Virus record (IMG/VR): IMGVR_UViG_3300037307_000307
Reading direction: 5' to 3' (one strand)
DNA: 64,000 nt
DNA from: a virus
Taxonomy: Duplodnaviria; Heunggongvirae; Uroviricota; Caudoviricetes
Shown: one piece after another, positions 4,592-32,482 of the stretch
How the letters are laid out: every line of letters starts with the position of its first letter
Position numbering within the stretch: position 1 is the stretch's first letter
Notes under the pieces: model-generated
Database searches by the model: none
What the model saw: only the letters and a program-made list of their open reading frames with translations
Told to the model about the DNA's origin: nothing
Position numbers and translations under genes: made by a program

Positions 4592-4592
4592 A

Positions 4593-7714: not shown

Positions 7715-7752
7715 GTTATTACCACGCTGCTCTGGTTTATAAATTTGGTTAG

Positions 7753-10700
7753 TCAGCATGATACTAGTTGCACTCCTGCCTTTAGATTAATTTCTGACTG
7801 TAATTTCTGTATTGTACAAGTTACTGAATCAGCAAATTGTGTTAATATATTCGAACTTATTGTTCCATCATACTGCCAAACAGCGTCTCCTAATTCTTGT
7901 ATACTTTCATTTGATAAAGTCAAATTAGCAGTTGGATAATAAGTTAATTCTCTTGTTGAATAACTCCATACATCACTTGCAGTTATATCATTCCCATTAT
8001 CAGTTAATGTTCTAGTTGTTGCATTCCATACTGAAGTTGGTATAGAAGAATAATCATTCTGATAAACATGGAAGTCATTTAAGCTGAAGTATTTTCTATC
8101 TTCAACTATACAATTTGTATAATAAGCATATATTCCAAGTTGTGCCGGAACTGTAAAGTCATAGATATATGCACCATCTCCTATCTCAGTCATTGACTGA
8201 TTAAATATGAATGTAGTTGAATTTGGATATAATAAAGTTACAGTACAATTCGCTCCTGTTTCAACTTCTGCTAATGCACCAGTACCTTTAACCAATCTAA
8301 TTGCTATTTTACCTGCATCTCCATCAAGATATTCAGTACCTCCAACATATGTGTGTCCTATATTTGCAATATCTTCAACTGTACTTACATTTTGAGTAGT
8401 TCCAGTTGTTGCGAAATCAACTGTTTTATTTGAATAACTCCATACAGCATTCGCAACATCGCTATTATTTACGGTAGCTTCAACTGTGAAATTGAAATCA
8501 GTCAGTGTTCTAACCGCATTGGTCCACACTACTTCTTGTATCAAAGTATAATTTGTAAGGTCTGCCCATTCAGGATAATAACTTAATGTTCTATTTGTTG
8601 AGGCCCATACCGCATCAGCAATAGCCGTTGTATTTACATCAATTGTAAAGTTAAATTCAGTAAGAGTTCTTTGTGTTGCATTCCAAACCATATCAGATAT
8701 TAAAGTATAATTCACGACATTATCTAATTGTGTTTGGTTTACATTCACTGTGAAGTCAAAGCTTGTCAATGTTCTGTTTGTAGCTTCCCATACAACTTGT
8801 TGTATCAAAGTGTAGTTGGTTAAGTCATATTGATTTGGATATTCAGTTAATGTTCTATTTACAGAAGTCCATACTGCTTCTGCAATTGCAGTGTTGTTTA
8901 CATTAACATCAAATCCAAATTCAGTCAAACTTCTATTAGTTGCATCCCATACCATTTCTTGTATCAATGTGTAATTGATTGGAGTCGAGTAATTGGAAAC
9001 TATATTTTCTATTTCAGTATAGTTAGTTTGGTCACCGAAGTTCTCGTAGTAAGTCAAGTTTCTATCTGTTGCGTTCCACACCATTTGTTGTATCTTATTA
9101 TAATCAGTCAAATCAGTTGGTGCTGTATGGTTGTAATCAGTAAGACTTCTATTCACAGCAGTCCAAACTGCATCAGCTATTGCTGTGTTATTAACTTCTG
9201 CATTCACGGTGAAGTTAAAGCTTGTTAATGTTCTATCAACCGCAGTCCATACTGCATTAGATATTTCTGTTTCATTTACATCAACTGTAAAGTCAAAGTC
9301 AGTTAATGTTCTATTCAAATTCTCCCATACAACTTGTTGTATCAAAGTATAATTAGTCATATCAATATGTTCATAGTATGTCAAGTTTCTATCTGAATAT
9401 AACCATACTCCGGCGGCAGTATCTTCAGCTATCTTGGTATAATTAGTCAAATCAACTTGTGCAGGATAGAATGTCAAGTTTCTATCTGTTGCATTCCATA
9501 CTCCAACTATTATTCTGTCATAATCAGTTACGTCTTCGGTGTAAGTTAAGTTTCTATTTCCAGCATTCCAGACTACATCAGCAATTTGTGAATAGTTTGT
9601 AAGGTCTATTTGTTGAGGATAGTAAGTCAAGTTTCTGTCTGTTGCATTCCAGACTCCTCCAACTACATTCTCTGTTATTTCAGTGTAGTTAGTTAAATCA
9701 ACTTGTGCAGGATAGTATGTAAGATTTCTTGTAGTTGCATTCCATACTCCAACTATTATTTCAGTATAATTAGTCATATCAATATGTTCATAATATGTAA
9801 GGTTTCTACTTGCAGCATTCCAAACATAATCTGCTATTTGAGTGTAGTTAGTTAAATCAACTTGTGCAGGATAGTATGTAAGATTTCTATCAGTTACGTT
9901 CCATACAGCTTGAGATGTTCCTTCAATTATTAATGTGTAATTAGTCTGGTCTACCTGTGCTGGATAGTAAGTCAAGTTTCTATCAGTGTTATTCCATACT
10001 CCGACTATTATTCTGTCATAATCAGTTACGTCTTGGTAGAATGTAAGATTTCTATCAGTTCTTGTCCAAACATAATCTCCAACCAAAGTATAATTAGTTA
10101 GGTCTATTTGTTGAGGATAGTAAGTCAAGTTTCTTATTGCTGCATTCCACACTGATTCTGCAACTTGTGTATAATTGGTCAAATCAATTTGTTCATAGTA
10201 AGTTAAGTTTCTATCGGGCGCTGTCCATACTGCTGTTGCGATTTGGTCAAGAAGATTTACAGAGATTGTTGCAGTTGAGCCCCAAACTGTTTCGGCCAAG
10301 AATGTATAATTTGTGACATCAGCATAGAATGTAAGACTTCTATTTGACGCGCTCCAAACTGTGTCAGATATTAATGTATAATTTGTAAGGTCTACTTGAG
10401 CAGGATAGAATGTCAAGTTTCTATCTGTTGCGTTCCAGACACCTACAATTATTTGATTATAATCAGTTACATCTTGATAATAAGTTAAGTTTCTGTTGGC
10501 TGCATTCCAGACTACTTCAGCAACTTGCGAGTAATTTGTTAAATCCATTTGTTGAGGATAATATGTTAAATTTCTATCAGTTGCGTTCCACACAGCGTTT
10601 GCTGTTTCGCCAATTATAAGAGAGTAATTTGTTAAATCAACTTGTGCAGGATAGTATGTAAGATTTCTTGTAGTTGCATTCCATACACCAAGAATGATTC

Positions 10701-13086
10701 TATCATAATCTGTTTGGTCTCCAAAGTTTTGATAATATGTTAAATTCCTGTCTGTGTAATTCCAAACAGCAGGAGGAACTTGATTGAAGTACAATTCAAG
10801 TAATGTGTAATTAGTTTGGTCTCCAAAGTTCTGATAATAAGTTAAGTTTCTATTTGCCGAGTTCCATACAGTTTCCGCAATTAAAGTATAGTTTGTAAGG
10901 TCAACTTGTGTTGGATAATATGTTAGATTTCTATCTGGTGCGGACCATATTGCAGCCGCGATTTGATTAAGAAGTCCGACTGATATTGTTGCAGATGAAG
11001 TCCAAACACTTTCTCCGACTAGAGTATAATTTGTAACATCGGCATAATAAGTTAAGTTTCTATCTGAATTATTCCACACAGCAGCGGCAACAGCTGAAGT
11101 ATCAATTGATGCGGTTATATTTGGATAAGCAGTTAAAGTTCTTGTTGGATAATTCCATGTTGCTCCTGGAATATTATTAACGTGAATTTCTCCTCCTCCT
11201 CTTATTTGATTTATCGGAACTTCAACAAAATTAATTTGGTCTAATCTAACTTGATTCAATCTCAGAGTTCCAGCTGTATAATGATTGGGGTCACTATCAT
11301 TATATCTTACAATCATATTTCCTCCGCTAACAAATGAAGATATATTTGTAAGGGCTGAACTTACAGTTCCATCTGAAACTACATTATAAGATAAACTGTT
11401 TGCTAATTTATACCATGAACTACCTGTGTAATTCCATAAATATACATCAACTAATTCTCCAAAATCACTCCAAGTATATCTTGTAACTATGTCCGCTTGA
11501 TGATATTCCGGTACAAGAGTTATTCCTGAAATAGTTGTGTTTACATCTAAATTATATTTAGGAGTACCACATTGTTTGTAAGTATTATAATTTGTTGCTA
11601 ATGTAGATGGAGAAGGACTTGCAAAATTTGCATCAGTTCCCTTAATATAACAAACTTCATCCATTACAGTATTCTCGATGTCATTTCCACCACCCAATAC
11701 TGCTCCAATTGTAAATCCATTTGAAAGAGTTAATGTTCCAGATTGAGTTTTCGCTTCATCTAATAATAAACTTCCATCTATATATAATCGCATTCTTGTA
11801 AAGTTTGCAAAACCGCAAACTGTATGAAATTGAGAATCTATATATGTTCCAGTTGTCTCTATTGTCTGAGCTCCTGTACCACTTCTATCAGAAACAAATC
11901 TAATATGATTTCCTCCATCATATGAAAATCTTATAACATCTCCAGATTCTGCTGAAATTAATCTATTACCATTAGCATTACTTGCAGATTGATTGAAACT
12001 AAAACAAACCATGTAAGCTTCATTTGAAGCTAAATTTAACTTAGTAGCTGCTGCAAAATTTGTATAATCATTAGTTCCAACTCCATATCTAACTCCTGCG
12101 CTTCCAACTTGTCCTGGAACTCCGATTGTTGGACTGTTGAAATGAGTACCTGTTGTTGGAGACGCACTTGAATCGAGAGTTGATGTTCCAGAATATTCAT
12201 CAAGATGGGCCATAAGTAAAGTTGTAACATTTGAATGAGCACCTGTGTTTGAGTTCTTTTCAACTATTGTGAGATAATTAGAATCGATATTTGTCAGACT
12301 TGCACCAGTTCCATTAACATACCAACCGTATGTTAAAGCGTATGCTGAGGCATTCGTGCTTGTTGTTAAAGTGTAATATTCGCAAAAGATTTCAGTCATA
12401 TAAACACCAAGTGAAGAAGGAGCTGTAAAATCATAATAATATAATCCTGTACTTCCAGTTTGATAAGTCATAATAGATTCATCAACCCATTTAACTCCAT
12501 TTGGATAATAAACTGAAATATAACAAGAAGCATTGTTTATCGGAGTTAATTGATTTTCTAAAAGTTGAACGAAAACTTTACCATTATCTCCAATGGTATA
12601 TTCAGTTCCGAAGATATCTATTTTCTTAGCAGCTTTGTTCATATATGTTAAATCAAGCCAAGCTGTTGTTGAACCTATATTACCACCAGAAACTGAAATT
12701 TTAACTTCATATGTTCCTGTTCGAGTTATTCTATTAGAACAATCAAAATAAACGGTTGATTTACCAGCGCCGGAATAAGTTGTTGAAACTGTATATGTTG
12801 GGTTGTTACAAGTTTGATTATTAATTAAAACAGTAAATGTTCTGGTAGGATTAATATAAGCATCTATAACTATTATAGCGGAACTAACTTGACTAATACC
12901 GTCTGGAGGATTAACTGTTAAATTATAAGAATAGTTAAGATTTTGAGTTAAAGATGGTTGATAAAATGGGCTAAGAAATATTTTATTAAATTGTTGGGTT
13001 TGTTGTTCTGCACTAACAAATGACGTGAAACTAATAAATAATATCAGAAACATCACCGATACTATTATTTTCATTTTATTTTTCAT
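7753..13086 (-). CDS. giant (1777 aa) secreted repeat protein with N-terminal LamG/ConA-like domain and about 35 tandem 22-aa NLTYY repeats
   Basis: SD AAGGAGAT 12 nt upstream; signal peptide ...FTSFVSA|EQ; jelly-roll-like segment MVCFSFNQSASNANGNRLISAESGDVIRFSYDGGNHIRF...MRLYIDGSLLLD; repeat VWNATDRNLTYYPAQVDLTNYT. Confidence 0.7.
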   Translation of the reverse strand: MKNKMKIIVSVMFLILFISFTSFVSAEQQTQQFNKIFLSPFYQPSLTQNLNYSYNLTVNPPDGISQVSSAIIVIDAYINPTRTFTVLINNQTCNNPTYTVSTTYSGAGKSTVYFDCSNRITRTGTYEVKISVSGGNIGSTTAWLDLTYMNKAAKKIDIFGTEYTIGDNGKVFVQLLENQLTPINNASCYISVYYPNGVKWVDESIMTYQTGSTGLYYYDFTAPSSLGVYMTEIFCEYYTLTTSTNASAYALTYGWYVNGTGASLTNIDSNYLTIVEKNSNTGAHSNVTTLLMAHLDEYSGTSTLDSSASPTTGTHFNSPTIGVPGQVGSAGVRYGVGTNDYTNFAAATKLNLASNEAYMVCFSFNQSASNANGNRLISAESGDVIRFSYDGGNHIRFVSDRSGTGAQTIETTGTYIDSQFHTVCGFANFTRMRLYIDGSLLLDEAKTQSGTLTLSNGFTIGAVLGGGNDIENTVMDEVCYIKGTDANFASPSPSTLATNYNTYKQCGTPKYNLDVNTTISGITLVPEYHQADIVTRYTWSDFGELVDVYLWNYTGSSWYKLANSLSYNVVSDGTVSSALTNISSFVSGGNMIVRYNDSDPNHYTAGTLRLNQVRLDQINFVEVPINQIRGGGEIHVNNIPGATWNYPTRTLTAYPNITASIDTSAVAAAVWNNSDRNLTYYADVTNYTLVGESVWTSSATISVGLLNQIAAAIWSAPDRNLTYYPTQVDLTNYTLIAETVWNSANRNLTYYQNFGDQTNYTLLELYFNQVPPAVWNYTDRNLTYYQNFGDQTDYDRIILGVWNATTRNLTYYPAQVDLTNYSLIIGETANAVWNATDRNLTYYPQQMDLTNYSQVAEVVWNAANRNLTYYQDVTDYNQIIVGVWNATDRNLTFYPAQVDLTNYTLISDTVWSASNRSLTFYADVTNYTFLAETVWGSTATISVNLLDQIATAVWTAPDRNLTYYEQIDLTNYTQVAESVWNAAIRNLTYYPQQIDLTNYTLVGDYVWTRTDRNLTFYQDVTDYDRIIVGVWNNTDRNLTYYPAQVDQTNYTLIIEGTSQAVWNVTDRNLTYYPAQVDLTNYTQIADYVWNAASRNLTYYEHIDMTNYTEIIVGVWNATTRNLTYYPAQVDLTNYTEITENVVGGVWNATDRNLTYYPQQIDLTNYSQIADVVWNAGNRNLTYTEDVTDYDRIIVGVWNATDRNLTFYPAQVDLTNYTKIAEDTAAGVWLYSDRNLTYYEHIDMTNYTLIQQVVWENLNRTLTDFDFTVDVNETEISNAVWTAVDRTLTSFNFTVNAEVNNTAIADAVWTAVNRSLTDYNHTAPTDLTDYNKIQQMVWNATDRNLTYYENFGDQTNYTEIENIVSNYSTPINYTLIQEMVWDATNRSLTEFGFDVNVNNTAIAEAVWTSVNRTLTEYPNQYDLTNYTLIQQVVWEATNRTLTSFDFTVNVNQTQLDNVVNYTLISDMVWNATQRTLTEFNFTIDVNTTAIADAVWASTNRTLSYYPEWADLTNYTLIQEVVWTNAVRTLTDFNFTVEATVNNSDVANAVWSYSNKTVDFATTGTTQNVSTVEDIANIGHTYVGGTEYLDGDAGKIAIRLVKGTGALAEVETGANCTVTLLYPNSTTFIFNQSMTEIGDGAYIYDFTVPAQLGIYAYYTNCIVEDRKYFSLNDFHVYQNDYSSIPTSVWNATTRTLTDNGNDITASDVWSYSTRELTYYPTANLTLSNESIQELGDAVWQYDGTISSNILTQFADSVTCTIQKLQSEINLKAGVQLVSC
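8500..11100 (-). repeat. intragenic tandem repeats (~66 nt, 22 aa) within CDS 7753..13086
   Basis: Periodic recurrence of ...gttccatac...aagtttctatc... on + strand corresponding to VWN(A/T)xxRNLTYY units. Confidence 0.6.
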
Positions 13087-13450: not shown

Positions 13451-13610
13451 TTTATTTTGGGCTCATAGTATAATAGTAGTATATCCGCCTTGCACGCGGA
13501 AGGCAAGAGAGCATAACTCTTTGGGTCCATTCGTCCTCAAACTTCTGTTGCGGGAAGAAGTCAGTTGCTGCAATAACTGCTGGTTAGTTCTGTTTTTGAG
13601 GACATTTTAT

Positions 13611-13682
13611 GAGTCTATAGTTTAATGGCAAAAATATCTCTCTTGTAAAGAGATGATTCCAGTTCAATTCTGGGTAGACTCT
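13611..13682 (+). tRNA. tRNA-Tyr (anticodon GTA)
   Basis: Acceptor GAGTCTA/TAGACTC 7 bp, U8, anticodon stem CTCTC/GAGAG with loop TTGTAAA, T-arm CCAG-TTCAATT-CTGG. Confidence 0.6.
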
Positions 13683-13684
13683 TC

Positions 13685-13755
13685 GGGGTGTTAAGATAAT
13701 GGCAGTCTCCGCCGTTTGGAACGGCGTTGCCCTGGTTCGATTCCAGGATATCCCA
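13685..13755 (+). tRNA. tRNA-Pro (anticodon TGG)
   Basis: Acceptor GGGGTGT/ATATCCC with 2 G-U pairs, anticodon stem CGCCG/CGGCG loop TTTGGAA, T-arm CCTGG-TTCGATT-CCAGG. Confidence 0.55.
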
Positions 13756-13757
13756 TC

Positions 13758-13824
13758 GGGTTGAGGACAGGAGAGTAAGGCGCGACTCGGCGCTGTGGGC
13801 TCCGCGAGTCTTGGCTTCAACCCA
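13758..13824 (+). other. tRNA-like 67-nt element (acceptor-like GGGTTGA...TCAACCC) lacking a canonical T-arm; possible tRNA remnant or atypical structured RNA
   Basis: Perfect 7-bp terminal complement, internal GACTCG...CGAGTC hairpin, GC-rich, sits between tRNA-Pro and tRNA-Gln. Confidence 0.2.
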
Positions 13825-13826
13825 AT

Positions 13827-13899
13827 AGCCTTGTAGTCTAGCGGCCAAGGACTGCGGACTTTGACTCCGCGAACCCAGGTTCGAATCCTGGCGAGGCTA
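13827..13899 (+). tRNA. tRNA-Gln (anticodon TTG)
   Basis: Acceptor AGCCTTG/CGAGGCT, anticodon stem GCGGA/TCCGC loop CTTTGAC, T-arm CAGG-TTCGAAT-CCTG. Confidence 0.6.
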
Positions 13900-13911
13900 T
13901 CGGCTCATAAG

Positions 13912-15929: not shown

Positions 15930-18708
15930 GAATTCATATCGCATCACTAAAGAAGAAAGAGATAAGATAAATAGTTTAGAAGATATTAAAAAAGATGATT
16001 ATATTTACGAGATATGTAAAAGAGAAGGAACGACATATACAAAAATTCTAGCACAATTACAAGAACCACAAGAGCTTATTGAAAAAGAGAAAATTGAAGA
16101 AGATAGAAAAGAAGAGTCTGAACATGAAATAGATATTGAAGATTTGCAACCAGTTGATTATGATAAAAGAACTTTGAAGGTAAATATACTCGACATATTT
16201 AAACCAGGAGTAGATGATATGACTTTAACTTCTAGCGGAAATTATAAAATGATATGTCCTGATTGTGGTTTACAAGGCGGAAGAACTGAAGGTTTTATTG
16301 TATATCCTGAATCTAATCAAGCTTCTTGTCACTCATCTGGAAAATGGTTTAAAGTTTTAGAAGCCTATGCTTTGAAAAAGAAATTGATTAGATGTTTAGA
16401 TGGAAGAGAACCAGGTGAAAAAGATAAAAAAGTTTTAGGTGGAGAATTATGGACGCAAACATTACTTGAATTCAAGGATGAATATGGTGTAGATAGATTT
16501 AATGATTTATGTGAAGATTGGGGAATTAAAAAAAGATTACAAATACCTGGTAAGTTCAGACTTCAATCAGCATTTGCCGATGATGCTGCAAAAATATTCT
16601 GTAGTAGAAATTTATTATTTTTAAGAGCTGAATCCGGAAATATAATAAAAATAAAAGTTACTAAAAAAGTTGATAAAGATAATGATGAAAAAATGCTTAC
16701 AATAGAGAGAGGAATTGAGGAATTAACTCCTGAAGAATTTGTGACTCTTTTAGAATTATATGTAGACCCTTATATGAAAACATATTACAAAGACGGAACA
16801 TTTCAAGAGGCTCCATATTCTATAAATAAGGAAACTGCTGGAATAACATTAGCTAGTCCTAATTTTAGATTTAAAATGCCTCCATTGGAAAGAATATTTG
16901 ATATTCAAATTCCGATTGTTCATAAAGGTAAATTAACATTTCCTAAGAAAGGATATGATAGAAGATTTGCAAGTTATCTTCCACCAAATGCTCCTAAAAT
17001 AAGGCCGAATGTATATACAGTTCAAGATGCAAAAGACTTCATTGAAGGAATATTTCAAGAATTTTGTTTTAAGGATAGAAAAGATTTCATGCACGCTCTT
17101 GCTGCATTCATAACTCCGTTCTGCAGAGGTTTATTCTCAAAGTTCTCTGTGAGAACTCCGGTATTTATCTATATGGCAAATAGAGAAAGAGCCGGTAAAG
17201 ATTATTTGGCCGGATGTACTGGTATGTTATATGAAGGAGTCGCGACAGAACAACCGCCAATATCAACAGATGAAAAGGGTGGATTTGGTAATAGTAACGA
17301 AGAATTGAGAAAGAAAATAACATCTTGTATGATTGAAGGGAAGAAAAGATTTCACTCTAGTAATAATAAAGGATTGTTAAATAATAGCGTACTAGAAAGC
17401 GCAACCACTTTGGATACATGGGAAGATAGAGTTCTTGGAAGAAATAAAACAATAAATTATCCAAATGAAATGGAATATAGTTTGTCTGGAAATATAGGTA
17501 TGAGTTTGACACCAGACCTTGTTAATAGAGCGAGAGTTATAGATTTAGAGTTGACCATAGAAGATGCTAATTCAAGAGTTTTTAAGAATCCAAGATTGCA
17601 CGCATGGATTCTTGATAATAGAGAAAGTATAATTTCTGCATTATATGCAATAGTCAAACACTGGTGGGAAAATGGGGCTAAACCTGGAAAGGTTCCTTTC
17701 ACTAGTTTTCCTGAATGGTCTGAAGTTGTTGGAGGAATAATGGAATCAGTTGGATGGGACAATCCTTGCACCAAAGATGAAGTTACAGTTATTGCGCTTG
17801 ACCAGGAAACTGATGAAATGAAAATATTGTTTGAAACAGCATATGAACAGAAACCAAATACATGGTTGAATCTTGGAGAATTGCAAGAGATAGTTGAAAA
17901 AGATGATATAATGCCGGATTTGGATTTAAAGAATAAGTCAGACCAGATAAAGTTTGGCAAATTAATTGCAAAATATGGTAATAGAATTCTATCTGATATT
18001 ACTATGTATGTTAAAGATAATAAACAAAGTCAAAGAAGAAAATACAAATTTAATAAGTCTCTACTGGCCCAAGAAGCTGATAAAGAAACTATAATTGATA
18101 AAGATAATAAAGAAAGTATAATTGATAAAAAGAATGAAGAAGTTAAAGAAAATTTGACAGAAAGTGAAAAAACTGACCAAAAAGTGCGCATGTTGCCCAT
18201 GTTTGCGCATGTTTCTACTCCGTCACATGATAGAAAATTGGAATTCATACCATACAGCGATACAAAAACATGCGCAGATATGCGCAACATGCGCACCCCC
18301 CTCACCCAGCCTGAAACATCAATTAAAACAACTATACTGAGCAAAGATGTTGTCCGGGAAGACTTGGAAAACATCCCCAAACATCCCCACCCCTCCACTT
18401 CCACTGGAAAGCCATTGGATTACTATACAAAGAAGATGGCTGTGGCCAAACAAGAAGAAATTGATAAAAGACTCAAAAAGGTCAGAAGCGAAAGAGAGCT
18501 CCAATTCTGGGAAGACCCACAGTGCGCAAGTATTGTAGCGCAATGTACAAGAGAGCAAACGCTTGAGTATGTTAAAGCCAATCCAAAGTCTTCCTATGAA
18601 AAGATTAGACTTGCACTTGGACTTGGAAGTTCAAAATGGCTGGTAGAACTTGCAAACGAAGGTTTAATAAAAAGAAACGATGATGAAAGTTGGGAGATAG
18701 TTATATAA
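15916..18708 (+). CDS. large replication protein, putative primase/helicase-like (zinc-binding N-region, degenerate P-loop-like region, C-terminal wH-like domain)
   Basis: ATG at 15916 (METIKNSY...) after ggtgaagagg; CPDCG...CHSSG zinc motif; VFIYMANRERAGKDYLAGCTG P-loop-like; stop overlaps PolB start (TAATG). Confidence 0.45.
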   Translation: METIKNSYRITKEERDKINSLEDIKKDDYIYEICKREGTTYTKILAQLQEPQELIEKEKIEEDRKEESEHEIDIEDLQPVDYDKRTLKVNILDIFKPGVDDMTLTSSGNYKMICPDCGLQGGRTEGFIVYPESNQASCHSSGKWFKVLEAYALKKKLIRCLDGREPGEKDKKVLGGELWTQTLLEFKDEYGVDRFNDLCEDWGIKKRLQIPGKFRLQSAFADDAAKIFCSRNLLFLRAESGNIIKIKVTKKVDKDNDEKMLTIERGIEELTPEEFVTLLELYVDPYMKTYYKDGTFQEAPYSINKETAGITLASPNFRFKMPPLERIFDIQIPIVHKGKLTFPKKGYDRRFASYLPPNAPKIRPNVYTVQDAKDFIEGIFQEFCFKDRKDFMHALAAFITPFCRGLFSKFSVRTPVFIYMANRERAGKDYLAGCTGMLYEGVATEQPPISTDEKGGFGNSNEELRKKITSCMIEGKKRFHSSNNKGLLNNSVLESATTLDTWEDRVLGRNKTINYPNEMEYSLSGNIGMSLTPDLVNRARVIDLELTIEDANSRVFKNPRLHAWILDNRESIISALYAIVKHWWENGAKPGKVPFTSFPEWSEVVGGIMESVGWDNPCTKDEVTVIALDQETDEMKILFETAYEQKPNTWLNLGELQEIVEKDDIMPDLDLKNKSDQIKFGKLIAKYGNRILSDITMYVKDNKQSQRRKYKFNKSLLAQEADKETIIDKDNKESIIDKKNEEVKENLTESEKTDQKVRMLPMFAHVSTPSHDRKLEFIPYSDTKTCADMRNMRTPLTQPETSIKTTILSKDVVREDLENIPKHPHPSTSTGKPLDYYTKKMAVAKQEEIDKRLKKVRSERELQFWEDPQCASIVAQCTREQTLEYVKANPKSSYEKIRLALGLGSSKWLVELANEGLIKRNDDESWEIVI
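18180..18300. promoter_or_regulatory. clustered GC-rich iteron-like repeats: 2x GCGCATGTT, then ~60 bp later inverted 2-3x (A)ACATGCGC(A)
   Basis: gtgcgcatgttgcccatgtttgcgcatgttt ... aacatgcgcagatatgcgcaacatgcgcac read directly inside the 3' part of the replication gene. Confidence 0.45.
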
Positions 18709-20549
18709 TGGCAAACTTTAATAAAAAATCCATATTAATTTATGATATCGAGACGGATTCTTTAGATATTCAAACCGCAAATATGAAATGGTTTGGAGCT
18801 TACAGTTATTTGAAAGATAAATATTATTGGTATCAATTTCCACAAGATAAGAAAGAAATTATAAGTTTGATAGAGAGTCATAAGGTTCTTGTAGGATTTA
18901 ACATAAAAGATTTCGATAATGAAATAATCGAAGCAAACCTTAAACTAGAGGAAAACATATTTGAGTATAAAGTTTTAGTCGACTTGTTAGAAATATCCGC
19001 TCCAAAGGCAGGTAAGAATTATGGAGCCCATAGAAAGAATAGATTGACTATGATGGGTTATAAGTTAAAAAATTATACTCTTAAAAATATAATAGAGCTT
19101 TTGAAATTGGATAAGGATATAGGAAGTAAAGGAGATATAGATTATAATATATTCAAGAAAGAAACGTTGACAAAAGAAGAAATAGATGAAATAATAAAAT
19201 ATCTCAAACAAGATATTGATTTAACAAAATTACTTTTTGAATGGTATGAAGAACAATATGAGCCATTAAAGAAACTTCTTCCTACAAAAGAACAAAACAA
19301 TTTCCTATATCTAAAATCAAGTTTAGCAGTTCTTGCTTATAATATAATATGTAATAAAGCAGGACTTCCTGTCGTATATACTGATAAAACAAAGAGTAAC
19401 GAATCTTATTCAGGAGGACATCATATTGAACCCGCCCATGAATTGGTTAAAGGTAATATAATAGAAGTAGATTTTACTAGTGCATATCCTCACGCAATTA
19501 TGATGGGTAATTTGTGTTCACCTGCAAAGGAAAATGAAAAATATTGGGATGGAAATAATTATTACAAACTTGATGGCAAATATAATAAAGACACACAAGG
19601 AAAAATTGAAACAGCTCTAAAGGAAATATTTCTTGAAAGATTGAAAGCTAAGAAAGAGAAAGACATTCCAAAAGATAAATCATATAAAATAGTTATCAAC
19701 AGTTTCTATGGTGCACTTGGTAATCCAGTATTCAAATCAATATATAATAGAAACAGTGCGTCTGACACAACTTCAATTGTTAGAACTTGGATGAAGAAAC
19801 TTGCTAAGAGTTTGGCTGAAGCAGGTTATGAATGTTTATACGGATTTACAGATTCTATCTTCATAAAAATACCAGATAAATTAAATAAAAAAGATGCTAT
19901 GAAAGAGATTGACTTATTCTTAAAAGAAGCTTTGGATAATATGCCTTTTCCAATGGATACTTTCAAAATGGGAATTGAAGAAGAAATTAAAATGATTTGG
20001 TTTGTAGCAAAGAACTGTTATTTGTTCGTAACTCAAGATGATAAGGTAAAATACAAATCTACTCTTTTGAATACAAATACTCCAGCGGCAGTTATGAAAT
20101 TGTTTGAAGAATATATGAAGCCTATAATTATACAGAAACTTGACATTCCTTTTACATATAAAGAACTTGAGCAACAATTAAAATTAGTTATTGAAAAAGA
20201 TATTTCTTTGGCAGCACAGGAACATAAAGTAACAGAACTGAGTGAATATAAATCTCACACATCTTTACAATATCAAATATCTGAAAAACATGGTGAAGGA
20301 AGACACTTATTAATACCTAACAGAAAAGGAGTTGGAGTCGGTCTTAGTAAACATACTAAAAAGAAAGCAGGAGTAAGACATTGCACTATAAAAGAATTCA
20401 AGGACAATAATCTAACAATATCAGATATTGATTTAACTCATCTTCTATCTCACCTCAAACCTTTCTATGAACGTAATGATGAAGCAAAGAAACAACAGAA
20501 AATACAAAGACAAACGTTGTTGCGAGAAATGCAAACAATATATGGATGA
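18708..20549 (+). CDS. polB: family-B DNA polymerase with 3'-5' exonuclease domain
   Basis: ExoI LIYDIETDS, ExoII FNIKDFDNEII, ExoIII YLKQDID; pol motif A DFTSAYPHAIM, motif B KIVINSFYGALGN, motif C YGFTDSIFI. Confidence 0.8.
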   Translation: MANFNKKSILIYDIETDSLDIQTANMKWFGAYSYLKDKYYWYQFPQDKKEIISLIESHKVLVGFNIKDFDNEIIEANLKLEENIFEYKVLVDLLEISAPKAGKNYGAHRKNRLTMMGYKLKNYTLKNIIELLKLDKDIGSKGDIDYNIFKKETLTKEEIDEIIKYLKQDIDLTKLLFEWYEEQYEPLKKLLPTKEQNNFLYLKSSLAVLAYNIICNKAGLPVVYTDKTKSNESYSGGHHIEPAHELVKGNIIEVDFTSAYPHAIMMGNLCSPAKENEKYWDGNNYYKLDGKYNKDTQGKIETALKEIFLERLKAKKEKDIPKDKSYKIVINSFYGALGNPVFKSIYNRNSASDTTSIVRTWMKKLAKSLAEAGYECLYGFTDSIFIKIPDKLNKKDAMKEIDLFLKEALDNMPFPMDTFKMGIEEEIKMIWFVAKNCYLFVTQDDKVKYKSTLLNTNTPAAVMKLFEEYMKPIIIQKLDIPFTYKELEQQLKLVIEKDISLAAQEHKVTELSEYKSHTSLQYQISEKHGEGRHLLIPNRKGVGVGLSKHTKKKAGVRHCTIKEFKDNNLTISDIDLTHLLSHLKPFYERNDEAKKQQKIQRQTLLREMQTIYG

Positions 20550-23090: not shown

Positions 23091-24692
23091 TCAATTGGAT
23101 TTAGACATTCCATTTATAATTTGTTTTGCAACATAATGTGCACTTCCAAATATTATTATTCCTGGAATAACCGCAATTCCCGCCCCAACAAGTACTGCTG
23201 GAGCCAACAATGTAGATGATATCGTGGCAAGAGAACCAAATCCTAATGATTCAAGCATACTGGCTGCTTCGTGGGTTTTCTTTTCAATTCCTTTTTCAAG
23301 AGCATCTATTTGCATAACTATTTTTCCGTTTTGCCATATTCTAACTTTTTTATCTTCTTCTGAAGTTAGAAAAACTTTGTTTCCATTTAGAGAAGCAGTG
23401 TATGCTGCCGAATTACCTGTAATAAATATTTTATTTTTTCTTCTAGCTATAACTGTATTATTATTATTAGTTGTTGGACAGAATACTATTCCATTGTATT
23501 TTTTCTCCTTTATCTCATTTCTAAAAACGTTACATTCATTGAATCTATTAATATTTGTTTTATAATATCCTTTTGAATCAATATATGTATTTGAATTTCT
23601 ATTTAATAAGATACAAAGTGTTTTAAAAAAATCTAGTCTTTTTTTGTTTTGAGTTCTTATATCTCCTTCCCAATTTTTATTACGTTTGTGCCCATCTCCT
23701 AACATCATTGAATTATATATCTCTTGTAATTCCTCTCCTTTTAATTCAAATATAGAATGTTTAGGTGTTCTATCAATATTAATAAAATCAAAAATCCATT
23801 TAGAATCTTTTGAGAATATTCTAAATTTACAATATCTTTTTAATTTACCATCGTAAGGTGAAAGTTGATTATATATATTCTTTGAAAATGTTAAGCCACT
23901 GGATACCAAAGTATCTTCTATTATTTTACATTTGTTTTTATTTGCTGTAAAACTTTGAACTATTTCTATAGATTTATCTCTTTTACTAATATAAGCATCA
24001 GATAAAACCCATCCTAAAATAGAAGCTTTTATTTTCCCAATACTTTTACCATTTTTTTTAAAAGAAGATAATTTATGTTTTGTTTTAATTTTTTCGGATA
24101 TTTGATTATAAGGAATTAATTTGTAATTATTATAGATAATTTTTCTGGAGTCTCCTTTTCCAATTCTCTTTCCAATCTTAACGAGCCCTTTATGTTCATT
24201 TGTTACAATGAAATCTAAAAATCTATTTTTAATATGAAAAACCTTTTCATTGATTTTATCAATGAAAATATCTTTAATCTTATCTTCCTCTATAATATCT
24301 TTTTTTAAATTATAGTTTAAGATTATATCTCCTTTGTTCAAATCTTTATATCTCTTCCAACCTTTTATTGTCAATATTTCAGTATCAGAACTTAAACAAT
24401 GTCTTGTACCATATCCTGTAAGAGTTTGAACATTTTTAATATTCATTCCATATCCAATCATTTCTCCTTGAGGATTAACAATACAAGCACCGTCGAGTAA
24501 CGCAAGTGCTTCAGCTCTTCTTTCAGAACCAATTATATTAAACTTAACAACATCTTGAGGAAACAAAGGTTCATATTCAATCGGTTTGTCCATTAGAACA
24601 ATTAAACAACCTTTGTTATTCTTTGCTATTTTTAAGCAGATATCAATTAAAGTTTTTTCAATTTCATTTGTCATAGTATATGTAAATAACAT
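23091..24692 (-). CDS. diadenylate cyclase (DAC/DisA_N domain, c-di-AMP synthase-like) interrupted by an intein; C-terminal membrane anchor
   Basis: N-extein LLDGACIVNPQGEMIGYG...LTGYGTRH | C-extein SAAYTASLNGNKVFLTSEEDKKVRIWQNG matches the DGA and GTRHRAA...VSEETG DAC signatures; C-terminal TM LATISSTLLAPAVLVGAGIAVIPGIIIFG. Confidence 0.65.
   Translation of the reverse strand: MLFTYTMTNEIEKTLIDICLKIAKNNKGCLIVLMDKPIEYEPLFPQDVVKFNIIGSERRAEALALLDGACIVNPQGEMIGYGMNIKNVQTLTGYGTRHCLSSDTEILTIKGWKRYKDLNKGDIILNYNLKKDIIEEDKIKDIFIDKINEKVFHIKNRFLDFIVTNEHKGLVKIGKRIGKGDSRKIIYNNYKLIPYNQISEKIKTKHKLSSFKKNGKSIGKIKASILGWVLSDAYISKRDKSIEIVQSFTANKNKCKIIEDTLVSSGLTFSKNIYNQLSPYDGKLKRYCKFRIFSKDSKWIFDFINIDRTPKHSIFELKGEELQEIYNSMMLGDGHKRNKNWEGDIRTQNKKRLDFFKTLCILLNRNSNTYIDSKGYYKTNINRFNECNVFRNEIKEKKYNGIVFCPTTNNNNTVIARRKNKIFITGNSAAYTASLNGNKVFLTSEEDKKVRIWQNGKIVMQIDALEKGIEKKTHEAASMLESLGFGSLATISSTLLAPAVLVGAGIAVIPGIIIFGSAHYVAKQIINGMSKSN
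23412..24398 (-). mobile_element. intein (~329 aa) with LAGLIDADG-type homing-endonuclease motifs, inserted after GTRH of the DAC motif
   Basis: Block A CLSSDTEILTIKGW directly after extein His; LAGLIDADG-like ILGWVLSDAYISKRDKS and MMLGDGHKRNKNWEGD; ends ...IFITGN followed by +1 Ser. Confidence 0.55.
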
Positions 24693-25023
24693 TTTTATAA
24701 AAAAGACAAAGTTTATATATTTAATGCTCTACATTGAAAAATGAACAAAAACAGAGCATATTTCTTATATCCTAGGCAATACCAGGTCGGGCCCTCTAGT
24801 AATATGGCCAATGGTTTCGGTAATTTCTTTGGAAATTACGCTCTGCCATCATTGAGCATCCCTGGTATTGCCACCTTCTATTCCATCAAACGTAATGGGT
24901 TTGAACACCAATTTATTCCCATAAGCGGTCACTAACTTAAAGCTACGATGCCACTGAGGTGTACGTGTTAGTGCATCACCTTATTGATGGATAAATCGCA
25001 AGTCGCTTTGCGGTTTTGTACAA

Positions 25024-25790
25024 TCATATTCAAAGCAAAGCATGGCGCGTTTAGGCAAATGTCTTGTGAGGCGATGTGAGGCAAGGTAATCATATTCACT
25101 TGGCTATCTCTGGCGGGGCAGATTCAGGATAGGACAGGCCAGGCGACGTAAGGTAAGGATTTCATATTCATTGGCGCGGCTATTTTAGGCGTGGCGCGGA
25201 CTCGTCTTGTTGGGTCTGGTAATGTAGCGCTGGGCGGAGTAAGGTTTGGTTTAAGGTTTGGCAAGGAATCATATTTATGTGGTTCGTTTTGGTCGTTCAG
25301 TGCGAGGCGCAGTCAGGAATGGTGGGGCAAGGATTCATAGTCATTCGTGACGACAGGTACTATTCGGTCCCGGACTCTTTGCGACTCTTCGGAGTGGAGA
25401 GAAATGATGGTGACCACTTAACCTGTTTCAATATCATATTTATTTGGTTAGGTAAATCTCGGAGTGGGCCTTGTCGGGCGTTGTTGGGTCGGGCAGTTGT
25501 ATCGCTAGGAGGGGTTAGGTATGCTGGGCACGGTTCAAGGTTTGGCAAGGAAATTAATTTCATATTCCTTGGTCCGTTTTGGTAAGGTCAATTTTGGTGA
25601 GGCCGCGTAATGTTTGGTGCGGGATTGCGAGGTTCTGCACGGCGGGGTTTGTTGGGGCCGAAGAAGGAAAGGTTTGAGCTAAGGCAAGGAACTCAAATTC
25701 ATATTCATTTGGTACGGTCCGGAGCCGGCGAGTTTCGGTCAGGTTAGTTGAAGTACGGAAAGGTAAGGAAATCGTATTCAAACCATGTTT
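25024..25790 (+). repeat. tandem array of ~8 GC/G-rich island units (box TCATATTCAyTTGG; variable 50-125 nt GG-periodic body; 3' (A)AGGyAAGG(A)A), same family as the 5 dispersed copies at 0.4-3.2 kb
   Basis: Boxes at 25024, 25090, 25162, 25269, 25335, 25434, 25560, 25699, 25772 (spacings 66-139 nt); GGCAAGG/GGTAAGG immediately before each box; strong G-over-C strand bias; no ORF conservation. Confidence 0.65.
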
Positions 25791-27011: not shown

Positions 27012-27614
27012 ATGACAGAGAAACAATATATTTGTAAAGTATGTGGATATGAATGGAATACTAAAACTTCCATGGGTAGTAAAAAACCCAAAATGTGCGC
27101 TAATCGTAAATGCAGGTCTATTTTATGGAATAGAGGGTTGGCTGATTGTAGATTTTATGTAAATAAAAGGTACCAACAACAACCTATAAAAGCGAGATAT
27201 CTAAAAAATGGTTGTTTTATTGCATTAGGAAATCCTAGAAGTAAAGGACAAAATTATCATTCAATTAGAAGAGATGGAAAATCATGGCTTCTTCATAGAT
27301 GGATTTTTTATATTAATCATGGTTATGCCCCTATTAGTGAAGTAATGCACATATGTAATAATACAGATTGTATAAATCCTTTACATCTCAAAGCGGGCAC
27401 TCGTGAAGAAAATGAAGCTCATAAAATTATTTCTGGAAGAAGCTTAAAAGGAGAAAAAAATCCAATGTCAAAATTATCTTTTAGAGATGTCTCTAAAATA
27501 AAAAATTTATTATATAATTGTAAACGAGGGGATATTATTAAACTTGCAAAAGAATATGATGTATCTTCTGCTACAATTTCATTAATTAAATATGGAAAAA
27601 ATTGGAATGGATAA
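27012..27614 (+). CDS. HNH homing endonuclease (HNH_3-like) with N-terminal zinc ribbon and C-terminal HTH-like tail
   Basis: CKVCGYEW...C; WLLHRWIFYINHGYAPISEVMHICNNTDCINPLHLKAGTREENEAHK (H..H...N..C.NP.HL....EN). Confidence 0.6.
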   Translation: MTEKQYICKVCGYEWNTKTSMGSKKPKMCANRKCRSILWNRGLADCRFYVNKRYQQQPIKARYLKNGCFIALGNPRSKGQNYHSIRRDGKSWLLHRWIFYINHGYAPISEVMHICNNTDCINPLHLKAGTREENEAHKIISGRSLKGEKNPMSKLSFRDVSKIKNLLYNCKRGDIIKLAKEYDVSSATISLIKYGKNWNG

Positions 27615-31423: not shown

Positions 31424-31626
31424 TGATTACGGTCGTGTACATAGACGGTACAAGTGACGAATTTAAGTCAAGTAGTTACCTTTTCACAGACTTTGAAGAA
31501 TCAGATGATTGGATTTCTATAAAAGAAAATACTCGAGATTCTGATGATGATGAGTATGACAGTGATGAGGATAAAACTATCGCTGAGATTCGAAGAGACC
31601 AAATCAGAAAAATACAATATGATTGA
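31423..31626 (+). CDS. small highly acidic protein
   Basis: MITVVYIDGTSDEFKSSSYLFTDFEESDDWISIKENTRDSDDDEYDSDED; stop overlaps SPFH start (ATGATTGA). Confidence 0.4.
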   Translation: MITVVYIDGTSDEFKSSSYLFTDFEESDDWISIKENTRDSDDDEYDSDEDKTIAEIRRDQIRKIQYD

Positions 31627-32482
31627 ATTAGTATTATTAGTAATTTTAGGATTTGTAGTTCTATTTCTATTATCTGGAATAAGAATTATAAGACCTACTC
31701 AAAGAGGCCTAGTGGAAACACTTGGTAGATATACTAGCTTTAGAACTCCTGGTTTTAACTTTATAATACCTATATTTCAAAGTATGACTAAAGTTAATAT
31801 TACAGAACAGATGACTGACATTGAGCCTCAAGAAATAATTACAAAGGACAACCTTAACGCAAAAGTTGACCTTGTCGTATATTTCAAGATAAAAGCAGAT
31901 GAACAGAATGTATGTAATTCAGAATATAAAGTACAAAACGTATATTCTCAGATTGATACTCTAGCTAGAACAACTGCAAGAAATGTCATTGGAACTATGG
32001 CATTCAGAGATGTGAATAGTAAGAGAAACGAATTGAATGACAAACTCAAGACGATTCTTATTAAAGAAACTAGAGATTGGGGAGTTGAAGTTCTTAAAGT
32101 GGAAATGAAAGAAATTGTTCCACCAAAGGATGTTCAAGATACAATGAACAAGGTTATTAAAGCTGAAAATGAAAAAGATGCAGCAATCGACTTCGCAACT
32201 GCAAGGGAAACTGAAGCAGACGGTAAGAAGAGAGCAGCAATCAAAGAAGCAGAAGGACTTGCTCAAGGTAAAATTATAGTTGCTAAAGCAGAAGCTGAAA
32301 GAATAAAGTTGGTCAACGAATCAGCTAATAAATATTTCAAAGGTAATGCACAATTACTTAGAAAATATGATGTAACTGAAAACTCTTTGAAGGATAATGC
32401 AAAAATTATTCTAACAGAGAAAGGTGTCAATCCTCAACTAATAGTTGGAGAATTACCGCTTAAGAGGTCAACAGAAGCCTAA
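31619..32482 (+). CDS. SPFH/band-7 (stomatin/prohibitin-like) membrane protein
   Basis: N-terminal TM IELVLLVILGFVVLFLLSGI; RIIRPTQRGLVETLGRYTSFRTPGFNFIIP...DVQDTMNKVIKAENEKDAAIDFATARETEADGKKRAAIKEAEG matches SPFH core plus the Ala/Glu coiled-coil tail. Confidence 0.65.
   Translation: MIELVLLVILGFVVLFLLSGIRIIRPTQRGLVETLGRYTSFRTPGFNFIIPIFQSMTKVNITEQMTDIEPQEIITKDNLNAKVDLVVYFKIKADEQNVCNSEYKVQNVYSQIDTLARTTARNVIGTMAFRDVNSKRNELNDKLKTILIKETRDWGVEVLKVEMKEIVPPKDVQDTMNKVIKAENEKDAAIDFATARETEADGKKRAAIKEAEGLAQGKIIVAKAEAERIKLVNESANKYFKGNAQLLRKYDVTENSLKDNAKIILTEKGVNPQLIVGELPLKRSTEA

Follow-up and report, generated by a model that had tools for sequence, protein, structure and literature searches.

A diadenylate cyclase-type gene carrying a homing-endonuclease intein on a probable virus-like element of DPANN archaea

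A single reading frame on the minus strand of the 64-kb stretch of DNA analysed here (the window) joins two parts of a diadenylate cyclase (DAC) domain to an intein that separates them, and so raises the questions of what the interrupted protein does, whether the interruption regulates it, and what kind of replicon carries the gene. We propose, with considerable confidence, that this is a DAC-type gene invaded by a selfish homing-endonuclease intein, and that its carrier is a large, virus-like extrachromosomal element of DPANN archaea (Pace-/Woesearchaeota group).

The precursor gene (23091..24692, minus strand, as are all features described below) encodes the N-extein, intein and C-extein in one frame, with 533 aa predicted in the list of open reading frames from an ATG at 24692. 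The true start is probably M7 at 24674, giving 527 aa; this shorter form is the JGI gene call (protein P0121), homologues begin at the equivalent position, and a TATA-like TTTATAAAA lies ~20-27 nt upstream of 24674. AT-rich, TATA-like sequences at 24693..24730 may represent an archaeal promoter. No Rfam match to a c-di-AMP riboswitch or other known RNA was obtained, even at E ≤ 1, in the 1 kb of conserved spacer that precedes the gene. The N-extein (aa 1-98; 24399..24692), delimited by the Pfam DAC profile and a profile alignment to CdaA, contains the DGA motif within LDGAC (24483-24497) and the sequence GYGTRH (24399-24416). The C-extein (aa 428-533 plus stop; 23091..23411) comprises the S+1-AAYTASL helix and the remaining DAC domain according to Pfam, the CdaA alignment and an AF2 model, and includes a TSEED motif (23352-23366) and a C-terminal hydrophobic membrane anchor of ~40 residues with conserved Pro and Gly, which hydropathy suggests is a hairpin or one to two helices (23127..23246). 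Between the two lies the intein of 329 aa (precursor residues 99-427, from C1 to G328-N329; 23412..24398), defined by its absence from homologues and from the syntenic relative L001, by AF2 modelling and by a family alignment, and with a GC content of 22.7% compared with 30-36% in the exteins. An assembly artefact is excluded, as the same interrupted allele was recovered independently in a Logan assembly (L004; 9.3 kb, 100% identical) and occurs in the JGI protein P0121 (109.7-kb contig). An alternative genetic code was also considered and rejected, since coding is most compact and free of overlaps under the standard code.

When aa 1-98 are joined directly to aa 428-533, the resulting protein of 204 aa scores 38.3 bits against Pfam DAC (PF02457; gathering cut-off 27), with an alignment unbroken across the junction over profile positions 5-119 of 119; the uncut reading frame aligns to positions 5-87 only, at 21.1 bits and under the cut-off. 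The initial annotation had read the locus as an intein-interrupted DAC-domain gene and named this search on the joined exteins as a check, and its reading is upheld. A profile of the DAC family recovers CdaA, DisA and DAC structures from the PDB at 4e-6, with DGA, GTRH-AA and SEE aligned, and the AF2 model of the spliced protein (pLDDT 83; above 90 over residues 10-150) has exclusively DisA, CdaM, DacM or CdaA among its top 50 PDB matches. A WD40 match in a single-sequence phmmer search of the PDB was dismissed as spurious, being produced by a 'DKKVRIW' stretch; the family profile was required. The architecture of the spliced protein is a DAC domain plus a C-terminal hydrophobic anchor and nothing else. 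The hydrophobic stretch spans spliced residues 155-195 (maximum Kyte-Doolittle 2.39 over 19 residues), in agreement with the earlier observation that a C-terminal anchor distinguishes this protein from CdaA. All scores against curated NCBIfam equivalogs fall far below the respective cut-offs (CdaA 14.6/188.8, DisA 15.9/201, DacZ 26/430, CdaM 12.5/225).

The DGA motif is present as L-D67-G-A-C and aligns with that of CdaA; in place of RHR the protein has R97-H98-S99, and the intein borders lie exactly between His98 and Ser99 of the nucleotide-binding motif GTRH|SAAYTAS. The position within the catalytic motif given in the initial annotation is therefore accurate to the residue, but the motif itself is RH-S and not RH-R. 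In DacA of M. tuberculosis the whole RHR motif is needed for ATP binding, and the only mutant documented as inactive is the triple RHR-to-AAA replacement, in which the third Arg was not singled out (PMC3328451). Ser at this third position therefore means that cyclase activity is not guaranteed.

The substitution is a property of the family rather than of this copy. The best 120 of 499 DAC homologues are all 190-224 aa long with an uninterrupted GTRH-S-AAYTAS, and the residue after RH is Ser in 103, Ala in six, Gly in six, Gln in two and Cys in two (one has no motif match), and never Arg. DGA is retained in 112 and SEED in 114 of the 120, GTRH and the following Ala are conserved, and so are P169, G176, P181, G182 and G187 of the anchor, so that DGA, RH-S for RHR, SEED and a C-terminal hydrophobic anchor are the traits of the family. 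It is conceivable that these proteins keep the DAC fold without making c-di-AMP, serving as nucleotide-binding regulators or as cyclases with another product; the consistent lack of the third Arg, the low equivalog scores and the reported absence of dacZ from DPANN (PMC12699388) are in line with this. We nevertheless judge it unlikely given the conservation of the other catalytic motifs, a fold that matches DACs only, and the fact that the inactive mutant lost all three RHR residues. The most likely activity of the spliced protein is synthesis of c-di-AMP or, failing that, the binding of ATP known from DAC domains.

The DAC family is a core chromosomal gene of Pace-, Woese- and Nanoarchaeota. 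Its cellular homologues (≤58% identity to the window copy) are found inside a ribosomal operon in one genome or adjoining aminoacyl-tRNA synthetase and EF-2 genes, on contigs of up to 857 kb. The literature places archaeal c-di-AMP signalling in Euryarchaeota only (PMC12699388, PMC8646023). Uninterrupted homologues of ~200 aa are up to 89% identical to the spliced window protein, one of them belonging to a syntenic relative with an empty intein site, and the element-borne relatives as a whole share 63-89% identity and occur in ORFan-rich contexts with their own replication genes. The best 80 GTDB genome loci include no DAC of this element type (top identity 56%). The window DAC falls into a distinct clade borne by elements of this type.

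The N-terminal HINT part of the intein (24048..24398), recognised from the family alignment and from a family profile compared with PDB inteins, includes block A (CLSSDTEILT, 24369-24398) and block B (VTNEHK, 24189-24206), and its C-terminal HINT part (23412..23528), recognised from the family alignment, includes block F (YNGIVFCPTT, with Cys for the usual Asp) and block G (IFITGN). Across 14 aligned related inserts, C1, T6, E7, L9, T10, G13 and H69 are invariant in the N-terminal part (T66 of the block B T66-N-E-H69 nearly so), as are Y301, G303, V305, C307, G328 and N329 in the C-terminal part. The intein ends in ...FITGN329|S; the +1 residue is Ser, Thr or Cys in all relatives and is here the native Ser of the DAC motif. 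The C-terminal splicing residues expected from the initial annotation, N329 and Ser+1, are accordingly both present on the alignment. The AF2 model of the intein has a pLDDT of 91.9, and its best PDB matches in Foldseek are PI-SceI, TliVMA, PhoVMA and PI-PkoII; many mini-inteins are matched as well. Taken by itself, the window intein scores below threshold in Pfam and NCBIfam/TIGRFAM intein models and has no match in a PDB sequence search; a search of the PDB with a profile of its family recovers inteins at 5e-6, among them AceL NrdHF, PolB, PI-PkoII and KlbA, and Pfam Intein_splicing matches 8 of the 14 family members.

Two residues depart from the usual pattern. The penultimate His is replaced by Gly328, and block F reads VFC...N (Cys307, Asn313) in place of Asp and His. 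A penultimate His and a block F Asp/His are frequent in inteins and not obligatory, and inteins lacking the penultimate His are reportedly able to splice. Given Gly for the penultimate His and Cys for the block F Asp, the splicing chemistry may deviate from the textbook route. Assignment to the class 3 inteins, which are marked by a WCT triad, was tried and rejected: of the triad it has only the Cys at F:4, B:12 is occupied by Gly, Ile, Leu, Met or similar and G:5 by Gly, and Cys1, absent from class 3 inteins, is invariant. The best PDB sequence match of the family profile is nevertheless a class 3 intein, AceL NrdHF.

The same departures, and the sub-threshold scores of the window intein in Pfam and TIGRFAM, could be taken as signs of a decayed intein that no longer splices and leaves its DAC copy a disabled passenger. 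The wider family makes this very improbable. The window intein and its relatives form a very large metagenomic family, with more than 3,600 members found at E ≤ 1e-30, in which a Gly-Asn end (GN|S in 93, GN|T in 35 and GN|C in 23) and a block F Cys are the norm; both features occur in essentially all members examined, including inteins of essential or enzymatic proteins, which argues for function. Cys1, the terminal Asn and the +1 nucleophile are moreover kept and TxxH nearly so, and the reading frame is intact over 1.6 kb at 23% GC, where stop codons arise easily.

Nested in the splicing domain is a LAGLIDADG homing-endonuclease domain (intein residues ~112-290; 23529..24065), identified by Foldseek and by Pfam matches of relatives. 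It carries both motifs with their catalytic aspartates, ILGWVLSDAYI (residues 127-137, D134; 23988-24020) and MMLGDGHK (residues 231-238, D235; 23685-23708), and resembles I-DmoI (4e-5), I-SceI and the PI-SceI endonuclease domain in Foldseek, consistent with the duplicated alpha-beta-beta-alpha-beta-beta-alpha fold of these enzymes. Pfam LAGLIDADG_3 matches five of the 14 intein relatives (best 1e-8), and the domain is missing from a mini-intein relative of 156 aa (P0134). Empty sites are at hand: the syntenic relatives L001, L002 and L003 lack ~1 kb exactly at the intein position, with BLASTN alignments breaking at window positions 24409 and 23404 around the intein at 23412-24398. Of the intein-free alleles, L093 is 82% identical in DNA around the site (±36 nt) and L001 62% (±30 nt), making both candidate substrates for the endonuclease. 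A second intein-bearing DAC on another element (P0122) has its intein, 45% identical to that of the window, at the same site in a DAC that is also 45% identical; the two are the only intein-bearing DACs found among ~500 homologues. A sister element carries a GN-ended intein of the same type in its PolB, and the window PolB is free of inteins. The LAGLIDADG endonuclease noted in the initial annotation is thus supported, with both catalytic Asp residues present and intein-free alleles in existence, and the intein is probably mobile.

The initial annotation went further and saw in the intein a built-in post-translational switch. As far as the fold goes, its premise is sound: the insert splits the nucleotide-binding GTRH|S motif, and the precursor therefore has no intact DAC fold and should be inactive before splicing. 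A few inteins are known to splice conditionally, and the two invariant cysteines, C1 and block F C307, could in principle form a redox-sensitive pair, so that the intein might be kept to time c-di-AMP production by a cue such as redox state, temperature or infection stage. However, tyrosine recombinases (P0123-P0129, P0137 onwards) are common hosts of the family, which occurs in multi-intein proteins too, and its inteins interrupt catalytic motifs of unrelated proteins: the recombinases, M15 peptidases, ThyX, a metallophosphatase and PolB. We attribute this distribution to homing into conserved DNA and not to regulation. Most DAC alleles, including the closest (78-89% identity) and that of the syntenic sister element, are intein-free, with interruption confined to the two cases above. 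Unrelated hosts, mostly intein-free DACs, an apparently intact endonuclease and deviant GC together mark the intein as a selfish element rather than a conserved regulator. The switch thus finds no support here, and we consider it highly improbable.

The nature of the replicon was assessed from the remainder of the window, which contains zero housekeeping genes and instead a primase-helicase-like gene, a PolB, four tRNAs, HNH endonucleases, an SPFH gene, a giant adhesin-like gene (a 6546-aa ORF with Laminin_G/Ig-like domains) and ~60 ORFans, at a GC content of ~32%. The combination of DAC, SPFH, primase/PolB and a giant Laminin_G gene recurs on related elements, and at least three related contigs, which measure 29-172 kb and come from different samples, have like gene content with mosaic synteny and no core genes in the parts seen. 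The primase-helicase and PolB module is shared (45-58% amino acid identity) with an IMG/VR contig (L089) that carries TerL. A weak RNA ligase match lies within the 1.5 kb that adjoin the window on the left. No capsid, portal or terminase was matched by PHROGs or Pfam among the 62 ORFs and ORF pieces of the window, which covers 64 kb of the 109.7-kb contig; tblastn found no TerL in the window, and PHROGs found no virion genes among the large ORFs of L005. The spliced DAC has no relative in GenBank phages (tblastn), IMG/VR or PHROGs, the PolB has no match in GenBank phages (tblastn), and the primase-helicase-like protein, used as a query, has none in IMG/VR.

Giant Laminin_G/Ig-like surface proteins are typical of DPANN cells. 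Their occurrence here, together with the lack of virion genes in the window, a GC content that fits Pace-/Woesearchaeota names such as '30_14' and '32_35', and a tRNA cluster that could mark an integration site, would suit a piece of DPANN chromosome (a variable island or an integrated provirus) on which the DAC is a second cellular paralogue. This is quite unlikely in our view, as cellular DAC loci are packed with the housekeeping genes that are missing from all 64 kb here, and the replication module is common to a terminase-bearing contig. The related contigs with their element-type content and the absence of this DAC type from the best GTDB loci point the same way, and no integrase was found in the window. 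We therefore favour an extrachromosomal element: of the proposed virus- or plasmid-borne location, the part that stands is that the gene lies outside the core chromosome, on a replicon with its own primase-helicase and PolB, whereas a viral nature is less secure with no virion genes in the window. The replicon is best described as virus-like, with indirect support for a virus from the replication module shared with the TerL-bearing contig L089.

Based on these results, we propose a scheme in which the intein would excise itself after translation by the standard route: Cys1 undergoes an N-S acyl shift, the acyl group passes to Ser+1, Asn329 cyclises and an O-N shift completes the reaction, releasing a membrane-anchored DAC of ~200 aa and a separate endonuclease. 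Splicing would most likely be constitutive; the intein would lie in the catalytic motif because homing targets conserved DNA and splicing needs a native Ser as nucleophile, and not because it regulates the enzyme. The endonuclease could cut intein-free DAC alleles in co-resident genomes, and repair would then spread the intein. While resident in the host, the element may use the DAC to tilt the DAC-based signalling that the host itself possesses, affecting ion, osmotic or envelope homeostasis. A bolder version, in which a large DPANN virus or virus-like replicon uses a host-derived membrane-anchored diadenylate cyclase to seize c-di-AMP signalling in an ultra-small host, its maturation passing through a possibly redox-gated Cys1/Cys-F4/Gly-Asn intein, is in our opinion doubtful; if true, it would represent the first virus-encoded c-di-AMP synthase and evidence for c-di-AMP signalling as a core function of DPANN. 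A role of the DAC in counter-defence is pure speculation.

The locus extends the range of intein hosts and of replicons that carry DAC genes without introducing a new mechanism, the intein itself being ordinary selfish DNA. A DAC-domain protein joins the known intein hosts, with the RH|S nucleotide-binding motif as a new insertion site, and a literature search returned no paper pairing 'diadenylate cyclase' with 'intein'. The uninterrupted homologues reveal a conserved, uncharacterised DPANN DAC family outside the Euryarchaeota to which archaeal c-di-AMP signalling has been assigned. The diverged DAC copies of the ORFan-rich elements occur repeatedly in the company of SPFH and giant adhesin-like genes. 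Since no PHROG family or GenBank phage matched a DAC, a second-messenger synthase encoded by a replicon would add a type of auxiliary gene not seen before and provide a way into the biology of mobile elements in DPANN. The abundant intein family with its Gly-Asn end and block F Cys may also be of interest to protein engineers.

Comparison with known systems places both halves of the gene. The window intein shares with PI-SceI and the VMA inteins of Thermococcus and Pyrococcus a HINT domain with nested LAGLIDADG endonuclease (Foldseek E 4e-11 to 1e-8, query-normalised TM-scores 0.6-0.65), Cys1, the block B TxxH, the terminal Asn, the +1 nucleophile, two acidic LAGLIDADG motifs and an insertion site in a nucleotide-binding motif of the host protein. 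Unlike these inteins, to which it is 8-13% identical, it has Gly instead of the penultimate His and Cys and Asn instead of the block F Asp and His, and resides in a DAC rather than an ATPase, polymerase or helicase. Its closest counterparts are the GN-ended family members, with 38-46% identity over the full 329 aa and common signatures in block A (C-x-x-x-D/K-T-E-I-L-T), block F (YNGIVWC) and block G (F-I-T-G-N); from these it differs in host gene and insertion site, P0122 being the only other member in a DAC. The spliced protein, in turn, resembles bacterial CdaA/DacA (TIGR00159) in its DAC fold, DGA, GTRH-AA and SEE motifs and membrane tether, but is anchored at the C-terminus without the three N-terminal transmembrane helices, has RHS for RHR, and is seen with neither CdaR nor GlmM as a partner. 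DacZ of Haloferax volcanii, the characterised archaeal DAC (NF041371), is its top NCBIfam match (E 5e-6, over the C-terminal DAC-domain part), although the 26 bits stand against a cut-off of 430 and the window protein is only ~200 aa with a C-terminal anchor. Length, motifs and C-terminal anchor are shared with the uninterrupted DPANN DACs (among them P0032, annotated 'diadenylate cyclase [Candidatus Woesearchaeota archaeon]', P0059 and P0088), which are 44-58% identical to the window protein and, unlike the window copy, are chromosomal and without an intein.

The 533-aa ORF at 23091-24692 on the minus strand is a diadenylate cyclase (DAC)-domain gene interrupted by an intein. Its product opens with a DAC-like N-terminus (...LDGACIV...GYGTRH), continues with CLSSDTEILT..., re-enters the DAC sequence at ...IFITGN/SAAYTASL...TSEED... 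and ends in a hydrophobic tail, with 329 residues inserted between GYGTRH and SAAYTASL. Uncut, the ORF aligned to positions 5-87 of the Pfam DAC profile, the N-terminal two-thirds, with 21 bits (gathering score, 27). Joining residues 1-98 and 428-533 yielded an unbroken match to positions 5-119 of 119 with 38.3 bits, above this cut-off, as the initial annotation had anticipated for the concatenated exteins. The true start is probably Met7 at 24674, which is the form called by JGI and the position where homologue N-termini fall; a TTTATAAAA box lies ~20-27 nt upstream of 24674.

Comparison with uninterrupted alleles confirmed that the insertion is clean. Queried against 5.8 billion proteins, the spliced DAC matched 499, of which the best 120 are all 190-224 aa long, at most 89% identical to the query, and have the G-T-R-H-S-A-A-x-T-A-S segment unbroken; the Ser that serves as the +1 residue of the intein is native to the family (103 of these 120). 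An empty site is present in three syntenic relatives (L001-L003), which are collinear with the window over 14.4-36.3 kb at 67-80% nucleotide identity and encode a DAC of 199 aa. Their alignment stops at window position 24409 and restarts at 23404, flanking the intein (23412-24398, minus strand, 987 nt), whose GC content of 22.7% is lower than that of the exteins (30-36%) and of the window (32.6%). An assembly artefact was ruled out, since the same interrupted allele occurs in an independent Logan assembly (L004; 100% identity, 9.3 kb) and in P0121, a JGI protein encoded on a contig of 109.7 kb.

A profile of 45 DAC family members matched CdaA, DacA, DisA and other DAC structures in the PDB (E-values 4e-6 to 1e-3), aligning the DGA, G-T-R-H-x-A-A and S-E-E segments. 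The AlphaFold2 model of the spliced protein (pLDDT >90 for residues 10-150) had DisA, CdaM, DacM and CdaA as its only top 50 PDB matches. In this model the helix after the GTRH loop contains the insertion point in its first turn, and therefore the nucleotide site of the precursor cannot be intact, in agreement with the proposed disruption at the catalytic motif. The protein ends in ~40 strongly hydrophobic residues, among them conserved Pro and Gly, which upholds the suggested C-terminal anchor and distinguishes the protein from CdaA, CdaM and DisA, none of which is anchored at this end. The spliced DAC also scored far below the curated equivalog cut-offs for DacZ, DisA, CdaA and CdaM. The third position of the RHR motif is Ser in 103, Ala in 6, Gly in 6, Gln in 2 and Cys in 2 of the best 120 of 499 homologues, with one lacking a motif match and none carrying Arg. 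Mutating RHR to AAA in Mycobacterium tuberculosis DacA abolished ATP binding and activity, the third Arg not having been mutated singly (PMC3328451). The spliced DAC is predicted, as its most likely activity, to produce c-di-AMP. Two element-borne DAC relatives (P0006 and P0007; 78% identical) have GTRH-Q-AS in place of GTRH-S-AA; because they lack the +1 nucleophile that an intein would require at this site, productive invasion of these alleles may be precluded.

Relatives of the insert were found in a second DAC at the identical site (P0122, 45% identity), tyrosine recombinases, M15 peptidases, ThyX and a metallophosphatase. Invariant among the aligned relatives are Cys1, the block A TE-LT, block B His69, the block F Y-G-V-C and the terminal Gly-Asn; block B Thr66 is nearly so, and the residue after the terminal Asn is always Ser, Thr or Cys. 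The C-terminal splicing residues (terminal Asn, +1 Ser) are thus present. The metallophosphatase-borne relative is a 156-aa mini-intein without the central 180 residues, which delimits the endonuclease domain. Both predicted LAGLIDADG motifs were recovered, each retaining its catalytic Asp (ILGWVLSD-A and MMLGD-G). Pfam detected Intein_splicing in 8 and LAGLIDADG_3 in 5 of 14 relatives, and the family profile reached 5e-6 against intein sequences of the PDB. The AlphaFold2 model built on the family alignment (pLDDT 91.9) best matched PI-SceI, the Thermococcus litoralis and Pyrococcus horikoshii VMA inteins and PI-PkoII, followed by the free LAGLIDADG enzymes I-DmoI and I-SceI and many mini-inteins.

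Compared with textbook class 1 inteins, the penultimate residue is Gly instead of His, and block F has Cys307 and Asn313 instead of Asp and His. Decay was rejected as the cause of these deviations, which are the norm across a large family: 1.84 billion representatives, searched exhaustively with HMMER, yielded 3,648 proteins at E <= 1e-30 and 15,267 at E <= 1e-10, and among the members retrieved the block F residue is nearly always Cys and the ends are GN/S (93), GN/T (35) or GN/C (23). Assignment to class 3 was likewise rejected, as the Trp and Thr of the WCT motif are absent and Cys1 is invariant, although the best PDB sequence match of the family profile is a class 3 intein.

The initial annotation regarded the intein as a built-in switch, which the distribution of the family does not support. 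Only two of ~500 DACs bear an intein, the closest alleles have none, and members of the same family occupy the catalytic motifs of many unrelated proteins, because homing-site sequences are conserved there and a native Ser, Thr or Cys is required. Although scarcely described, the intein is a selfish element of an ordinary kind. We propose that the precursor would be translated from a leaderless-type mRNA and that the intein would excise itself via a Cys1 thioester, transfer to Ser+1 and cyclisation of Asn329. The ligated DAC (~200 aa) would insert its C-terminal anchor into the membrane and act on ATP as a dimer, while the released endonuclease could cut intein-free DAC alleles in co-resident elements, and possibly the host, with repair copying the intein into the cut allele. 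At the intein site, the nearest intein-free allele has 82% DNA identity. The PolB gene of L001 (12541-15381, minus strand, 946 aa) contains a ~300-aa intein ending in GN (KIIIN/CFAEDTQVMT...LSWSGN/SFYG) and its DAC gene has none, whereas the window PolB (18690-20549, 619 aa) is intein-free and its DAC is interrupted. This reciprocal pattern is the patchwork expected from active homing in a recombining element population.

Scanning one genome per GTDB species identified 163 relatives of the DAC. The best 80 are labelled nearly all Pace-, Woese- or Nanoarchaeota, are uninterrupted and 41-56% identical, and lie on contigs of up to 857 kb. One (P0059; L091, 6001-6588) sits within a ribosomal-protein operon, flanked by L18 and by an unannotated ORF following L32e, with S5, L30, L15 and SecY downstream. 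Another (P0088) adjoins HisRS, diphthamide synthesis genes, S27e/S24e, Spt4 and Rpb7, and the closest cellular type (P0010, 58% identity) adjoins EF-2, S10, PRPP synthetase and PheRS. These contexts are core chromosome, and the ribosomal-operon placement suggests an essential housekeeping role. On a contig of the probable host lineage (L095), inteins also occur in an AMP-binding enzyme and an MGMT-like protein. This DPANN family is uncharacterised, as archaeal c-di-AMP has been described as a euryarchaeal trait and dacZ reported absent from DPANN (PMC12699388, PMC8646023).

The element-borne DAC would most plausibly augment or override host DAC signalling; the suggestion that it counters nucleotide-based defence is unsupported. 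SPFH/Band 7 genes, or an NfeD protease partner in the 171.7-kb element carrying P0122 (L005), lie ~1-7 kb from the DAC in each related element (window, 31544-32482; L001, 3665-4534; L094, 7025-7900; L005 NfeD, 7751-8713) and could form a functional module of membrane proteins. SPFH beside or close to the DAC in several elements, with NfeD and LemA in one, hints at a membrane or ion-homeostasis module. The DAC fold is already known, and no DAC match was found among PHROG families or GenBank phages, nor a paper linking inteins to diadenylate cyclases in our literature search. Novelty lies in the combination of a new intein host and site, a DPANN DAC family that is conserved, has RHS and is anchored at its C-terminus, and the acquisition of this family by large mobile elements.

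DAC genes with 63-89% identity to the one in the window were confined to contigs of a similar type (L001-L003 and L094), to which the contig of P0122 also belongs. The window encodes a primase-helicase-like protein (955 aa) followed by PolB, a separate PolB-type exonuclease, a nucleoside deoxyribosyltransferase-like protein, an SPFH/Band 7 protein, at least two HNH endonucleases and ~60 ORFans, mostly on one strand. Four tRNA genes cluster at 13459-13901 (Thr-TGT, Pro-TGG and Gln-TTG by ARAGORN; a fourth, missed by it, at 13459-13529 by Rfam). A 6546-aa ORF (43206-62846, minus strand) contains several Laminin_G_3, Big_13 (Ig-like), DUF2341 and Pentaxin-like domains and, at about residues 2140-2280, a PT-HINT/Hint domain that may be an autoproteolytic or BIL-type module; a 1777-aa ORF (7753-13086, minus strand), with internal DNA repeats at ~8.5-10.4 kb, had zero Pfam and PHROG matches. 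Directly upstream of the DAC gene, a ~1-kb non-coding spacer (25020-25790) with GC above its surroundings has ~8-9 degenerate direct repeats, GG(C/T)AAGG(A/T)nnTCATATTCAyTTGG, spaced 66-139 nt apart. It had no Rfam match, its 25326-25448 part is the DNA best conserved with L001 (87%), and the repeats could be replication-origin iterons or a regulatory-site array.

Of the proposed virus or mobile-element location, the mobile, extrachromosomal part very probably holds, given an own replication module and no housekeeping gene in the 64-kb window; on the viral part, no virion gene was found in the window (the source contig is ~46 kb longer). The primase-helicase and PolB module is common to the window and an IMG/VR contig (L089, IMGVR_UViG_3300035698_011067) at 45-58% amino-acid identity, and L089 encodes a terminase large subunit (2799-5366, minus strand; phrog_36964, 3e-49) split by a LAGLIDADG intein that ends in the classical HN/S (GHGKN/CADSTPVLT...LIPTHN/S). 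By our subjective, uncomputed estimates, the replicon is very probably extrachromosomal or mobile and belongs to DPANN archaea of the Pace-/Woesearchaeota type; a large virus is marginally favoured, a plasmid-like element is a tentative alternative, and an integrated island is improbable. The related element L094 carries Prim-Pol/DUF5906, HNH, PolB exonuclease, Band 7 and a Laminin_G giant of >2060 aa, and L005 is ORFan-rich with NfeD, LemA and several free-standing homing endonucleases. Free-standing HNH-/DUF559-type homing endonucleases lie at 4933-5622 and 27012-27614 in the window and at 11622-12254 and 13122-13733 in L005, a load similar to that of large phages.
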